Shown: positions 2,128-45,808, counted from the first letter of the stretch. The stretch is 64,000 nucleotides of DNA from Thermoplasmata archaeon (GCA_052325545.1 JBKQUP010000009.1:13486-77485); one strand, 5' to 3'. Notes: generated from the sequence alone by a model not told the origin. Numbers and translations: made by a program.

Positions 2128-3594
<1,467 letters not shown>

Positions 3595-3906
3595 TTTTGA
3601 GCACACGATTCGCGTGTGCGGGAATACTTGTGGTCGGAAACCGATCTTTGCTGACTGGCGGAATTGCTCTTTACGTTAGATGAGCTACTTCGCGTACGTT
3701 TCTCGTACTTGTCTCCCCCGTCAGTCCCGAGAGGTCACTCCCCGTCTCCAGGGAGGGGTTCTCAGGGCTCCACGCCCCCATTGGGCCATCTGTGGCGTCG
3801 CCTTGGAGGAGCACGGATCACGGGGTCCCCGGCTCGCCGTGGCGGCGTCGCCATGCCGCGCTTCCGAAGAAGCGGGCGTAGCGTTCGAACGAAGGGGGTC
3901 CGGTAT

Positions 3907-4659
3907 TTAACGGGCGCCACCGGCCGCTGCTCCTCCCATAGAGGCCTCGCCGTTCTCGAGACGGCGCACCACGAGCGGCACCTCGAGGAGCGACGTGATC
4001 TCGGGGGGGTCCCACCCAAACCCGAACCCCTCGCGGTTGAGCCAGACCCCGTACATCCCGACGGCCGAGGCGGCCTTCGCGTCGGTGTGGGCGAGGTTGC
4101 CGACGTAGACCGTTTGCGCGGCGGGCACGTTCATCCGCGATAGGGTCCGGCGGAAGATCTCGGGGTCTGGCTTCTCGACCCCCTCGGTCCCCGAGGAGAC
4201 GATGCGCGAGAAGTAGTCGAGGATCCCCACCCGGTCGAGGATGCGGCGCACAGCCGCCTCACTGGTCGAGTTCGAGACCACGCCGAGCGCCCGGCGCTGC
4301 GCGCGCAGCGTGTCGAGGCAGCGACGCGTGTCGGAGTAGAGACGGACCGGTCGCTCGGTCTCGAAGACCGCGGCGTTGAACTTGAGGGTCGTGGCCTCGT
4401 CCACCTCTCTTTCGGCGGCGCGCGAGAGTGTCCGACGCCAGAACTCCACCATCGCGGCCTCTCCGTGCACGCCGGGGGGCCGGGCGTCCAGCTCCTCCTC
4501 TACTTCCAGGAACGCGTGGCGGAGCTGGTCCGCGTCGAAATCGAGGAAGAACCGCCGGGCGACCTCGGCCCACCCGTCGAAGTCCTTGTGGTCGATCAGC
4601 GTTCCGCCGAGGTCGAACAGCACCGCCCGGACCCGCACCGGCCCTCCCTCCCCCCGCAC
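3907..4659 (-). CDS. HAD-superfamily hydrolase
   Basis: VRAVLFDLGGTLIDH DxD motif at the N-terminus; 250 aa; GTG start. Confidence 0.7.
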   Translation of the reverse strand: MRGEGGPVRVRAVLFDLGGTLIDHKDFDGWAEVARRFFLDFDADQLRHAFLEVEEELDARPPGVHGEAAMVEFWRRTLSRAAEREVDEATTLKFNAAVFETERPVRLYSDTRRCLDTLRAQRRALGVVSNSTSEAAVRRILDRVGILDYFSRIVSSGTEGVEKPDPEIFRRTLSRMNVPAAQTVYVGNLAHTDAKAASAVGMYGVWLNREGFGFGWDPPEITSLLEVPLVVRRLENGEASMGGAAAGGAR

Positions 4660-6764: not shown

Positions 6765-9563
6765 TCACTCCCCTCCGAACTCGGGGCCCTCTTCGGGCGC
6801 TCCGAACTCCTCGGTCTCCTCTTCCTCGGCCTCTTCCTCGAGCTGGGCCTCGGCCTGGAGGTCCATCTCTTCCTCGGTCACGGGCGGGGCGCCGGCGGCC
6901 CCTTCGGGCCGCCGCTCCTCGCTCGAGCGCACGCGCCGGCCCAGGACCTGGGCGACGACCTCGTCGAGCGAGACCGGTGCGCCTCCGTACGAGCGCGTCG
7001 GGTCGATGCCGTCCTCGCCGTACTTGTACTCGATGATCGTCTCCGCCGTGTTGCGCACGGTCCCGTCCTCGTTGACCTTGAGGTCCTCGAGGGCGTTGAT
7101 GAGCCGCCGCTGCATGTAGCCGGACCGGCTCGTCCGGACCGCGGTGTCGACGAGCGACTCCCGGCCGCCCATCGAGTGGAAGAAGTACTCCGTCGGGGAG
7201 AGCCCGCGCTTGTAGCTCGAGCTCACGAACCCGCGCGCATCGGAGCCGAGGTCGCCCCGCTCGAAATGCGGGAGCGTCCGGTGGACGAACCCGCGCATGA
7301 GCCGCTCCCCGCGCACCGATTGCTGTCCCACGGCACCCGCCATCTGGGTGAGGTTGAGCATCGAGCCCCGGGCGCCCGACTTCGCGAGGATCACCGCGGG
7401 GTTCTCGAGCCCGAGGTACCGGCCCGCGATGTCGCCGGCCGTGTCGCGCGCCTGGCCGAGCTCGCGTCGGACCATCACTTCGAGCGTCTCCTCGAGCGAG
7501 CGGCCCGGCATCTGCTCGAGCTCGCCCTTACGGTACTGGGCGACGAGCTCGTTCACGCGGACGCGCGCGTCCGAGAGCGCGGTGAGGATCTCCTTCAGCG
7601 CCCCTTCGGGGACGTCCTCGTCGTCGATCCCCGTCGAGAGCCCTTTGAGGCCGATCGCCGTGATCGCGAGGCGGCTCATCTCGTCCAGGAACTGGCGCGC
7701 GCGCGGCATGCCGTTGTTGCGCGCGATCGAGTCAAGGACCGCCCCCTTCTCGTAGGCGATCGCCTTCTTGTCGATCACGCCGGCCTTCAGGATCCCGTTC
7801 TCGATCACGACGTTCGCGTCGTGCTTGCAGGCGAGCGGCGAGCAATCGCACCGCGCCCAGATGTTCGCGCGGAACTCGATCGTGAGGTCCTTCGGGAGCG
7901 TGAGCGAGAAGAGCTGCTTTCCGCCCCAGAACGGGAGACCGTCCTTGTCCTTTCCTTCGGGCGGCGGGAGCGGGTAGTGGAGCTTCGAGAGGAGGTACGT
8001 CACCTCGCTCTTCGTGAACTTCGGGTTCTGGTACGTGAGCAGGAACGCCGCGGTGATGTGGTCGTGCAGCATCCCGATGATCGGGCCGCCGTACCGCGGG
8101 GAGAGGATGTGCTCCTCGACCTTCATCAGGACCTTCGCCTCGGCGCGGGCCTCCTGGCTCTGGAGGACGTGCAGGTTCATCTCGTCGCCATCGAAGTCCG
8201 CGTTGTAGGGCGGGCAGTCGCAGAGGTTGAACCGGAACGTCTTGTGGGGTAGGATTCGAACGAAGTGCGCCATCATGCTCATCCGGTGCAGGCTCGGCTG
8301 CCGGTTGAACAGCACGATGTCGCCGTCGATCAGCTGACGCTCGACGATCGAGCCGGGGACGACGAGCTCGGCGCACGCCTCGGCGTTCTTCTCCATCACC
8401 CGGATGCGCTGGCCGTCCTCGCGGACGAGGTAATTGACCCCGCACCGGACGTGCCCCTCGGCGTCGGGGGCCGGCGACGGGCCGCGGCGGACGAGCTCCT
8501 TCGCGACCTCCTGGTTGTGCAGCGTGACCTCGAGCGGGACGGTGAGCCCGCGAGCGACCTCGACCGGGATCCCAACCTCGTTGATCGAGAGCAGCGGGTC
8601 CGGGCTGATGACCGTACGGGCCGAGAAGTTGACGCGCTTTCCCGAGAGGTTCGAACGGAACCGGCCGTCCTTCCCCTTGAGCCGCTGTGCGAGGGTCTTG
8701 AGCGGCCGGCCCGAGCGATGCCGGGCGGGCGGGATGCCACTCGTCTGGTTGTCGAAGTACGTCGTGACGTGGTACTGGAGGAGCTCCCAGAGGTCCTCGA
8801 CCACGAGCTGGGGAGCGCCCATGTCGCGGTTCTCGCGCAGGCGCTGGTTGATCCGCAGCACGTCGACGAGCTTGTGCGTGAGGTCGTCCTCGCTCCGCTC
8901 TCCGCTCTCGAGCGTGATCGACGGGCGGACCTGGACCGGCGGGACCGGGAGGACGGTGAGGACCATCCACTCCGGGCGGCCGAACTTCGGGTTGAGCGCG
9001 AGCGAACGAACGTCCTCGTCGGGGATCCGCTCGAGGCGGGCGCGCACCTCCTTCGGGGTGATCTTGTGGCTGTTCTCGCGGAAGGTCGTGGGTTTGTCGA
9101 GGACGATCTTCTGCTGGAGCTCGTGGCAGTTCGGGCACGCGCGCTCGTCCTTCGCCTCCCGCGTCCGCGGGGCCCGCGGCGTCGGGGCCGCGTCCTCCGC
9201 GTCGGCGGCCGCCTCCGCCCGCTGGGTCGGGGCGTCGGGGAGCATCCGTCCGCACGCCCGGCACGTCGACTGCAAAAGGCGCTTGACCTCCTTCGCGTAC
9301 CCGACGTGGATCACCGGCATGGCGAGCTCGATGATGCCGAAGTGGCCGGGGCATTCGTTGACCCGGCCGCCACAGGTCCGGCACCTTAGGTTCGGCTCGA
9401 TGACCCCGAGGTGGAGGTCCATGAGGCCCATCTCGATGGGGTAGCCGTCGTCGTCGTACGTGTCGGCGGTGATGATCTTCGCCGCGCTCATCCGCCGGAT
9501 CTCGTCCGGCGAGAGGAAGGCGAACTGGAGGCCGCGGATCTTCTTCGAAAGTCCTTGTGCCAT
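6765..9563 (-). CDS. rpoA1: DNA-directed RNA polymerase subunit A'
   Basis: 932 aa; ATG verified at 9563; zinc-binding CRTCGG..C.GHFG motif, [10 protein letters not shown] catalytic loop; acidic C-terminal tail. Confidence 0.95.
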
Positions 9564-13254: not shown

Positions 13255-13593
13255 CTAGTCCCCTCCGACCGACGGGACGATGAGGCGGTAGGCGATGGCC
13301 ATGCCGGCGGTGGCGCTCGGTCGGCGGACCCGAACGAGCCGGCCCACGAGCGTCTCCCCGCGTTCGCGCAGGCTCTCGAACTTGGGGTCGGTCTTGAGGC
13401 CGGGGTCCGAGACCAGGATCTTCGGAAGGCGCTCGGGCGACGCGCCGAGCTGTTCGAGGACCTTCCGCGACTCCTCCTCGCTCAGGATCTCGTGGGGCGG
13501 AGCGAGGTGATGAGCGACGAACGGTCGGGGCGGGACGGCCACCTTGGCCGCGGCCGGGCGGGCGCGCGATCGACGGGTCGTGCTGGGGGTCAT
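13255..13593 (-). CDS. rpoH: DNA-directed RNA polymerase subunit H (Rpb5 homologue)
   Basis: Track ORF 13255..14100 trimmed to ATG 13593 (verified). The C-terminal 75 aa HEILSEEESRKVLEQLGASPERLPKILVSDPG...GRLVRVRRPS...AYRLIV match RpoH; the upstream part of the track ORF overlaps a tRNA. Confidence 0.8.
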   Translation of the reverse strand: MTPSTTRRSRARPAAAKVAVPPRPFVAHHLAPPHEILSEEESRKVLEQLGASPERLPKILVSDPGLKTDPKFESLRERGETLVGRLVRVRRPSATAGMAIAYRLIVPSVGGD

Positions 13594-13614
13594 GCGGTCC
13601 TCCGAGGAACGGGA

Positions 13615-13757
13615 CGGGCCCGGGGGGACGTCCGGAGCGACCTCGCGGTTGGCGCGAGGAGGCTCGTTCGAACCCCCGACCACCTGGTTAAAAGCCAGAT
13701 GCTCTTTGTAGGGCCACCCGGCGAGCCGGACGGCCAACCTAACTGAGCTACGGGCCC
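13615..13757 (-). tRNA. tRNA-Lys (anticodon UUU) interrupted by two putative non-canonical introns (about 31 nt in the D-loop, about 38 nt in the T-loop)
   Basis: Manual fold of the minus strand: acceptor GGGCCCG/CGGGCCC, D-stem GCTC/GAGC, anticodon arm TCTGG-CTTTTAA-CCAGG, variable TGGTC, T-stem GGGGG/CCCCC with TTCGAA(C) T-loop, discriminator G. The two extra segments form internal hairpins (CCGG-CTCG-CCGG; CCTCGCG-CCAAC-CGCGAGG). Mature length is 74 nt; there is no anticodon-loop intron. Confidence 0.6.
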
Positions 13758-13816
13758 GTTTCCGCTCCGAGGAGCCGAGACCCGGGAGCCGTATTTGACA
13801 GTATGCCTGACGGGAT

Positions 13817-45531: not shown

Positions 45532-45556
45532 CCAATTCAGCCGGCGAGAGGCGGGA

Positions 45557-45640
45557 CGCTGAGGGGGAGATTTGAACTCCCGTGGCGGAACCGCCACCAG
45601 CTTTCAAGGCTGGCGCCTTGCCGGGCTAGGCTACCTCAGC
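45557..45640 (-). tRNA. tRNA-Ser (anticodon UGA), class II with long variable arm
   Basis: Manual fold: acceptor GCTGAGG/CCTCAGC, D-arm GCCT-AGCCCGGCA-AGGC, anticodon arm CCAGC-CTTGAAA-GCTGG, variable arm GGCGG-TT-CCGCC, T-arm GGGAG-TTCAAAT-CTCCC, discriminator G. Confidence 0.85.
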
Positions 45641-45706
45641 GCATCGGGCAGAGCGGAGCCGGGAGGAATAAACCCTCCCTTTGGGAGGGGGTCCGGGGCG
45701 GAGGAG

Positions 45707-45808
45707 TGCAGGTGCCGGGACATCCGCGCGAGACCTGGTCGGGTCTCGCGTTTCGAACCCGGGTAGTCAGCTTGGAGGGCTGACATCCTACCACTAGATT
45801 ACACCTGC
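45707..45808 (-). tRNA. tRNA-Gly-like (anticodon UCC) with about 31-nt non-canonical intron in the T-loop; unusual C33
   Basis: Manual fold: acceptor GCAGGTG/CACCTGC, D-arm ATCT-AGTGGTA-GGAT, anticodon arm TCAGC-CCTCCAA-GCTGA, T-stem CCGGG/CCCGG enclosing TTCGAA + hairpin insert (CGCGAGACC-CGA-GGTCTCGCG) + T, discriminator A. Confidence 0.55.

Follow-up and report, generated by a model that had tools for sequence, protein, structure and literature searches.

A conserved tRNA-Lys(UUU) gene of Thermoplasmata with probable protein-spliced introns in the D-loop and T-loop, located directly upstream of rpoH

Within the window, the whole stretch of 64,000 nucleotides of Thermoplasmata DNA that was analysed, there is in all probability a functional tRNA-Lys(UUU) gene transcribed as a 143-nt precursor that contains two protein-spliced bulge-helix-bulge (BHB) introns. 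One is located in the D-loop and the other in the T-loop, and the same two non-canonical introns are conserved across order-level lineages of one euryarchaeal class. The original prediction had read this region as a tRNA-Lys gene with two introns, and the analysis supports that interpretation as essentially right. The organism appears to be a soil or peat Thermoplasmata related to Ca. Lutacidiplasmatales. By RpoB its nearest relatives, at 98% identity, are MAGs from peat or soil, one of Ca. Lutacidiplasmatales is found at 92%, and the exact RpoB of the window is also present in GCA_052326765.1, GCA_052326225.1 and several ENA/Logan assemblies. The RpoB scan and the rpoB open reading frame bear out the earlier assignment to a Thermoplasmata-like lineage with an unsplit rpoB.

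The layout of the gene and its surroundings is given in Table 1. The exons fold into a cloverleaf with a 7-bp acceptor stem (GGGCCCG/CGGGCCC), U8 and A9, a 4-bp D stem (GCUC/GAGC) with A14, G18 and G19, an anticodon arm UCUGG-CUUUUAA-CCAGG that has a 5-bp stem, U33, the anticodon UUU and A37, a 5-bp T stem (GGGGG/CCCCC) and the T loop UUCGAA|U. The span claimed at the outset corresponds exactly to tRNA +1 through discriminator G73, and all the canonical elements that had been listed are present, including an anticodon loop that is uninterrupted. The inserts, which had been put at about 31 and 38 nt, are of just those lengths (13736-13706 and 13666-13629). The unspliced gene is poorly visible to standard tools. 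ARAGORN makes no tRNA call on the unspliced region, even in intron mode, and the Rfam tRNA match is partial, scoring 18.7 bits under relaxed thresholds against a gathering score of 29. In silico deletion of the two inserts leads ARAGORN to recognise a tRNA-Lys(ttt) in 440 of 441 junction variants, with a product of 74 nt, so that the ARAGORN check proposed initially returns a lysine tRNA only after removal of the inserts. The spliced molecule has the stems, U8, A14, G18 G19, U33 and UUCGAAU of an archaeal elongator tRNA-Lys(UUU). The fold of the 143-nt RNA has a z-score of −4.5 relative to dinucleotide shuffles, and the cloverleaf-plus-BHB conformation has a free energy of −74.1 kcal/mol compared with −80.2 for the minimum free energy structure. 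A split or circularly permuted tRNA is ruled out, as the exons are colinear and contiguous within the 143 nt. Self-splicing group I or II introns were also rejected; the inserts of 31 and 38 nt compare with a ribozyme core of >200 nt, and they have no Rfam intron match. No C/D-box motifs were seen by eye in the introns.

Table 1. Features of the tRNA-Lys(UUU) gene and the adjacent RNA polymerase operon (window coordinates)
Feature	Position	Strand	Remarks
pre-tRNA-Lys(UUU), complete gene, 143 nt, +1 (13757) to G73 (13615)	13615-13757	−	conserved at 67 loci
Layout 5'→3': GGGCCCG UA GCUC AGUUAGGU (intron 1 UGGCCGUCCGGCUCGCCGGGUGGCCCUACAA) A GAGC A UCUGG CUUUUAA CCAGG UGGUC GGGGG UUCGAA (intron 2 CGAGCCUCCUCGCGCCAACCGCGAGGUCGCUCCGGACG) U CCCCC CGGGCCC G	13757→13615	−	
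Exon 1: positions 1-20 (acceptor 5' strand, U8 A9, D-stem 5' strand, D-loop AGUUAGGU)	13737-13757	−	
Intron 1: 31 nt, D-loop 20/21, UGGCCGUCCGGCUCGCCGGGUGGCCCUACAA	13706-13736	−	relaxed HBh'
Exon 2: positions 21-59 (A21, D-stem 3' strand, anticodon arm, variable loop, T-stem 5' strand, UUCGAA)	13667-13705	−	
Anticodon UUU in loop CUUUUAA (U33, A37)	13690-13692	−	
Intron 2: 38 nt, T-loop 59/60, CGAGCCUCCUCGCGCCAACCGCGAGGUCGCUCCGGACG	13629-13666	−	strict hBHBh'
Exon 3: positions 60-73 (U60, T-stem 3' strand, acceptor 3' strand, G73)	13615-13628	−	
TATA-like box AAAUAC, −39 to −34 from tRNA +1, inside conserved UGAAAUAC	13791-13796	−	conserved across loci; putative
5' leader strand GGAGCGG (−11 to −5)	13762-13768	−	complementary to trailer
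3' trailer strand CCGUUCC (+3 to +9)	13606-13612	−	pairs with leader
rpoH Shine-Dalgarno GGAGG	13599-13603	−	after trailer
rpoH, 112 aa, RNA polymerase subunit H	13255-13593	−	Pfam RNA_pol_Rpb5_C E = 1.4e-16
rpoB, unsplit, 1223 aa	9574-13245		downstream of rpoH
rpoA'	6765-9563		downstream of rpoH

The T-loop intron forms a strict hBHBh' motif, i.e. two 3-nt bulges on opposite strands with a 4-bp helix between them and helices on either side. The outer helix is the T stem itself. The central helix H is formed by U54-G57 (UUCG) with CGGA of the intron, and the inner helix h' (GAGC:GCUC) continues into an apical hairpin. The bulges are AA|C on the 5' side and CG|U on the 3' side, and a cut after the second nucleotide of each restores the sequence UUCGAAU. 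In a gapless alignment of 27 copies, each of 143 nt (alignment A1), the four base pairs of H are formed in every sequence (27/27), where U-A alternates with U-G, and h' exhibits compensatory changes at columns 94:122 (AU 18, CG 4, UA 1), 95:121 and 96:120 (CG 10, AU 5, GC 2). The strict hBHBh' motif is a substrate for all types of the splicing endonuclease EndA (PMC5829648). The geometry is exactly that of the canonical archaeal 37/38 introns processed by α4 or α'2 EndA, whose bulges are of 3 nt, whose H has 4 bp and in which the cut follows the second nucleotide of the bulge. It differs from those in its position at 59/60, in having the T stem as the outer helix and in the use of U54-G57 in H. 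EndA would be expected to cleave at AA|C and CG|U, and joining of the exons would then generate UUCGAAU. Five unrelated metagenomic tRNA-Lys(UUU) genes (L152, L127, L145, L154 and L174) have a T-loop intron at or near 59/60, that of L152 being 59 nt in length; these lack a D-loop intron and do not lie beside rpoH. Insertion at the T-loop site seems to have happened repeatedly.

The D-loop intron is built around a 10-bp inner hairpin (h'), and its 3' end CUAC pairs with U16-G18 of the D-loop to form H, nucleotides 17, 17a and 18 being paired with the 3' end of the intron. The 5' site is in a 3-nt bulge GU|U that adjoins the 10-bp hairpin. The 3' site AA|A is found in an internal loop opposite the unpaired A14 G15, and the motif is therefore of the relaxed HBh' kind (central helix, one proper bulge, inner helix and a second site in a loop) and not a strict BHB. 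The exon and intron covary at columns 17:49 (UA 18, CG 8, UG 1) and 18:48 (CG 14, AU 13), and the pairs 17:49, 18:48 and 19:47 are formed in every sequence. The BHB search that had been suggested for both junctions thus reveals a strict motif in the T-loop and a relaxed one in the D-loop, with covariation in support of each. With nucleotides 16/17-18 held by the intron, cleavage at GU|U in the proper bulge and at AA|A in the internal loop opposite A14 G15 would leave a D loop of sequence AGUUAGGUA.

The register of this helix bears on where the intron ends. With H at 16-19 the intron is 31 nt long and the D loop 9 nt; 83% of the cells of this helix are paired, and its outermost pair 16:50 is unpaired in 18 of the 27 sequences of this high-GC clade. 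An alternative H, 17-20:46-49, is paired in 27/27, and would generate a 29-nt intron at 20a/20b, an 11-nt D loop and a 76-nt product. The gene could be genuine and yet be cut in this second register, or removal of the D-loop intron could require a factor besides α'2 EndA, in keeping with the D-loop intron of Methanopyrus kandleri that is located at 20b/21 and is poorly cut by an α'2 EndA (PMC5829648). We consider this improbable. We have chosen the 31-nt intron because the spliced 9-nt D loop AGUUAGGUA matches the 9-nt D loop AGCUAGGUA of intronless syntenic orthologues, and this comparison disfavours the 29-nt register. In copies of the Methanomassiliicoccales type the 16-19 register is a perfect CUAG:CUAG helix, and columns 22 and 52 behave like intron positions in that they differ between genes that are almost identical. 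The intronless orthologues likewise support the junctions that had been proposed in the D-loop and T-loop, which fall at 20/21 and 59/60.

The gene is widely conserved. A scan with RpoB, using one genome per GTDB species, gave 80 loci labelled as Thermoplasmata, Methanomassiliicoccales or broader Methanobacteriota/Thermoplasmatota. An orthologous tRNA-Lys lies upstream of rpoH in 67 of these 80 Thermoplasmata genomes, including those of Methanomassiliicoccales. Most of the remaining loci have no upstream sequence; in Ca. Sysuiplasma (L067) and in L079 the gene is absent despite ample upstream sequence. Together with the window there are 68 copies, and in 68/68 the exon lengths sum to exactly 74 nt, the mature length that was originally predicted. 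The D-loop intron is present in all 68 (27-41 nt) and the T-loop intron in 66 (28-41 nt), while 16 have a third, canonical intron at 37/38 (29-52 nt). Three introns are found in L044, L046, L048, L049, L053, L056, L059, L060, L061, L066, L068, L069, L074, L077 and L078. L071 has the D-loop and 37/38 introns, its T-loop intron being lost or never present, and L040 has the D-loop intron alone. These varied sets should be useful for reconstructing the gain and loss of introns.

Within alignment A1 essentially all the exon columns are invariant and the intron columns vary; exon 1 is without variation except at positions 16-17a, which covary with the intron. The proposed structure has 90% of cells paired, compared with ≤55% when the 3' partners are slid by one to three columns. 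There are 21 pairs that change on both sides, none of 500 column shuffles reaches the observed covariation, and H and h' are kept. One might suppose that this is a decaying pseudogene, a former tRNA-Lys that suffered two insertions and is no longer used. Standard tools make no call on it, and with 64 kb of the genome in view a second intact tRNA-Lys(UUU) could lie elsewhere. Yet the exons are invariant across genomes whose RpoB sequences are 65-98% identical, the inserts diverge while retaining compensatory pairing, the length less the inserts is constant across every copy and the synteny with rpoH is kept. Since the exons are invariant and the introns vary with their pairing preserved, chance hairpins are excluded and a pseudogene is strongly disfavoured; we regard the latter as extremely unlikely.

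A metagenome scan for versions lacking introns yielded eight contigs with a plain 74-nt tRNA-Lys(UUU) directly upstream of rpoH (L109, L118, L131, L136, L139, L144, L147 and L153). On seven of these rpoB is also found downstream, with an RpoB 51-58% identical to that of the window; the contig L109 is not long enough for rpoB to be seen. Five of the contigs (L109, L118, L131, L139 and L147) were compared base by base with the spliced product of the window. Their D loop is AGCUAGGUA or AGCUCGGUA, and their T loop is UUCGAAU except in L139 (UUCAAAC). The spliced 74-mer of the window is identical to L131 at 72/74 positions and to L109, L118, L139 and L147 at 70-71/74. It is also 69/74 identical to the intronless L120, a short contig without a match to rpoH. 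The gene is thus orthologous to recognised tRNA-Lys(UUU) genes, and the predicted 74-nt product agrees in length with its intronless syntenic counterparts. As an intronless tRNA is found at the same place in distant lineages, the linkage of tRNA-Lys to rpoH predates the introns. The distribution supports a gain of the introns in an ancestor of the clade that contains Methanomassiliicoccales and the Lutacidiplasmatales-like lineages. With intronless syntenic outgroups, this would provide a dated and polarised case of intron gain followed by long-term retention.

The start codon of rpoH (ATG at 13593) is 22 nt beyond the discriminator, exactly as first claimed, and Pfam confirms the identity of rpoH. 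The 21-nt spacer contains only the GGAGG Shine-Dalgarno sequence; it has no T-run and no room for a promoter. Upstream of the tRNA the sequence AAAUAC within UGAAAUAC is found at a fixed distance in all high-GC relatives, and other clades have AT-rich TATA boxes at about −55. We take this to be a putative promoter for both the tRNA and rpoH. Given a TATA-like box upstream of the tRNA and a spacer without a T-run, co-transcription of the tRNA and rpoH is the most economical reading. The tRNA most likely shares a promoter with rpoH-rpoB-rpoA', so that 3' processing of the tRNA would create the 5' end of the RNA polymerase mRNA. It is plausible that tRNA processing is involved in expression of the RNA polymerase operon, as had been raised originally. 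A more doubtful possibility, taken up below, is that synthesis of RNA polymerase is coupled to the splicing and processing of the probably co-transcribed tRNA.

The leader and trailer of the window are complementary, with a few compensatory changes. Other intron-bearing clades (loci L044-L061, L073 and L075) have leader and trailer pairs that are unrelated in sequence but complementary. That of the L044 group comprises about 20 bp, with a free energy of −35 kcal/mol compared with −22 ± 4 for shuffles. The intronless outgroups have no leader-trailer complementarity. We suggest that the leader-trailer stem may act as a clamp on the acceptor end for as long as the introns disrupt the D and T loops. 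Excision of the whole tRNA by EndA through a leader-trailer BHB, as in rRNA processing, was considered and rejected; the stems contain only 1-nt bulges and mismatches. In the window an extended pairing would also cover the Shine-Dalgarno sequence and ATG of rpoH, only if transcription starts upstream of the point predicted from the TATA-like box.

The proximity to rpoH, with a 21-nt spacer and no terminator, and the complementarity of leader and trailer in intron-bearing clades would both fit with an unspliced tRNA-like leader of the rpoH mRNA, in which the inserts are structural expansions of a regulatory RNA. However, the inserts are set in exact BHB geometry, and the predicted cleavage restores a canonical tRNA like those of the intronless orthologues. 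Inserts in the D and T loops would moreover abolish the G18/G19-Ψ55/C56 elbow of a tRNA-like fold, and in the outgroups this position is occupied by a plain 74-nt tRNA. A regulatory leader is therefore very unlikely, and a spliced tRNA-Lys(UUU) remains by far the better explanation.

We infer that the RNA is indeed spliced, and that the cuts made by EndA fall behind the second nucleotide in each of the 3-nt bulges. An RtcB-type ligase would then join the three exons into the 74-nt tRNA, which would be completed by RNase P, tRNase Z and CCA addition. The window and all the rpoB loci gave no match to EndA on searching by phmmer with the M. jannaschii EndA sequence, which is identical to that of PDB 1a79. 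A protein-database search with the catalytic fragment of the A. fulgidus enzyme returned 95 candidates, none of them from Thermoplasmata, the query being too insensitive. A profile search, and then the use of protein P0100 as query, was needed to reach the Thermoplasmata family. This is a large family of 350-aa EndA proteins, several of which are labelled Thermoplasmata archaeon by NCBI. One of these, P0269, is encoded on DATEGJ010000039.1 of MAG SMAG_U8782, the same MAG that contains locus L061 (DATEGJ010000152.1) with its three-intron tRNA-Lys. The EndA contigs of JASDBE01 and ERZ1758346 gave no tie to any tRNA-bearing genome, and only DATEGJ01 matched.

P0269 has two tRNA_int_endo_N and two tRNA_int_endo stretches in Pfam, i.e. 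the tandem architecture of an α'2 enzyme, and the catalytic Tyr/His/Lys triad is kept. P0265 is likewise a 350-aa protein of a relative, with two N-terminal and two catalytic-type domains. In these relatives the architecture is neither that of separate α and β subunits nor that of a three-unit ε protein. By alignment, the Tyr-His spacing is 7 residues, where M. jannaschii has 9, A. fulgidus 10 and ARMAN-2 14, and no specific-loop insert (L1/L2) is seen beside the catalytic His; the insert of ARMAN-2 sits in the Tyr-His loop. The check on the type of EndA that had been proposed gives, for the relative that carries the same gene, an α'2 enzyme and not the broad-specificity ε2 or (αβ)2 type. These Thermoplasmata α'2 enzymes (P0269, P0265 and P0234; loci L089, L082 and L081) exceed that of A. 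fulgidus in length by about 45 aa. In the structural repeat at their N-terminus the loop PRGGxPKKTPS is conserved, whereas A. fulgidus has a deletion there. The order of genes around endA is conserved as PDDEXK_19/HTH, endA, HAD hydrolase and DUF1028.

By the published rule relaxed introns are handled only by (αβ)2 and ε2 EndAs, and in vitro the D-loop HBh' intron of M. kandleri was a poor substrate for the α'2 enzyme of A. fulgidus (PMC5829648). The occurrence of α'2 P0269 and a three-intron tRNA-Lys in one MAG thus indicates that at least one relative pairs an α'2 enzyme lacking a known specificity loop with a relaxed D-loop intron. We offer as a tentative and rather doubtful proposal that throughout the clade of Methanomassiliicoccales and Lutacidiplasmatales-like lineages a presumably essential tRNA-Lys(UUU) depends on such an α'2 EndA for removal of its relaxed D-loop intron, with splicing possibly coupled to RNA polymerase synthesis. 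If this were so, broad specificity would have arisen by a different route, for which the PRGGxPKKTPS loop or the leader-trailer clamp (found in intron-bearing lineages only) are candidates. The combination of an α'2 enzyme with a conserved relaxed substrate makes the clade directly testable, including in a cultured organism.

Multi-intron tRNAs with introns in the D- and T-loops are well described in Thermoproteales and Thaumarchaeota (Sugahara 2007/2008; PMC8450103). The present gene resembles those in that they may contain as many as three BHB introns, placed at non-canonical sites that include the D and T loops, and are missed by ordinary tRNA finders. The Thermoproteales and Thaumarchaeota have an (αβ)2 EndA with the crenarchaeal specific loop and many such genes, whereas here the lineage is a Cluster-II euryarchaeal one, seen from a 64-kb sample of its genome. 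The original prediction held that such genes are much less expected in a Thermoplasmata-like euryarchaeon than in Thermoproteales, and this is only partly correct. tRNAscan-SE 2.0 lists 25 non-canonical introns in 144 euryarchaeal genomes, with one in Thermoplasmatales (PMC8450103, Table S7). The same table has 13 canonical and 6 non-canonical introns for three genomes of Methanomassiliicoccales, including one gene with two introns (PMC8450103, Table S7), and M. kandleri has a D-loop HBh' intron (PMC5829648). Those Methanomassiliicoccales are of the same clade as our loci L058, L062, L065, L073 and L075, and the counts very probably include an orthologue of the tRNA-Lys(UUU) gene. Table S7 gives aggregate counts only, without description of the gene, its positions, conservation, synteny or enzyme, and the published literature that we searched describes neither the gene nor its conservation, synteny or enzyme.

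The closest parallel among Euryarchaeota is pre-tRNA-Glu(UUC) of M. kandleri, which has a relaxed HBh' D-loop intron (20b/21) together with a canonical intron (Kaneta et al. 2018, PMC5829648). This too is a euryarchaeal multi-intron tRNA, with a D-loop intron that has one good bulge, an inner helix and a disrupted second bulge, and an EndA without a specific loop. In the present gene the second intron is in the T-loop at 59/60 rather than at 37/38, the tRNA is Lys(UUU), the enzyme of the relative is α'2 and not (αβ)2, and the pair of introns is conserved across orders and not confined to one species.

A further point concerns Methanomassiliicoccus luminyensis, in which no tRNA-Lys was detected, a lack that was attributed to ~17 kb of unavailable sequence (Borrel et al. 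2014, PMC4153887). Methanomassiliicoccus sp. UBA6 (L062) has an orthologous multi-intron tRNA-Lys of 142 nt, which suggests that the M. luminyensis gene was simply undetectable. The missing tRNA-Lys is probably an undetected orthologue of the multi-intron gene. As a kind, multi-intron archaeal tRNAs are known; what is modestly new is the clade-wide conservation, the occurrence of a relaxed intron alongside an α'2 enzyme, and a likely explanation for M. luminyensis.

Other RNA elements are found in the window. A complete archaeal 16S rRNA gene is located at 2128-3595 on the minus strand, and there is no 23S rRNA anywhere in the 64 kb. Unlinked rRNA genes have been described for lineages related to Thermoplasmata (PMC4153887), with which the lone 16S gene is consistent. 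A sub-threshold Rfam match to CRISPR-DR29 at 4270-4300 on the minus strand (26.8 bits against a gathering score of 39, E = 0.18, single copy) is probably due to chance.

Across the whole window ARAGORN calls just one tRNA, an intronless tRNA-Ser(UGA) at 45554-45641. A second hidden tRNA is present at 45707-45808 on the minus strand, 67 nt upstream of the tRNA-Ser, with an Rfam score of 25 bits that falls below threshold. On removal of a 31-nt insert from the T-loop at 59/60 (45721-45751) ARAGORN calls tRNA-Gly(tcc). The BHB of this intron is of the same design as that of the T-loop intron of tRNA-Lys, with H formed by UUCG:CGGA and bulges AA|A and UG|U. The anticodon loop, CCUCCAA, has C33 in place of the universal U33. 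With the Lys and Gly genes both carrying an intron at 59/60, two of the three tRNA genes in the window have one, and the same proportion are invisible to ARAGORN and to Rfam at the gathering score. Consequently tRNA complements, and MAG quality scores that count tRNA genes, may come out too low for this clade if annotation relies on such tools.
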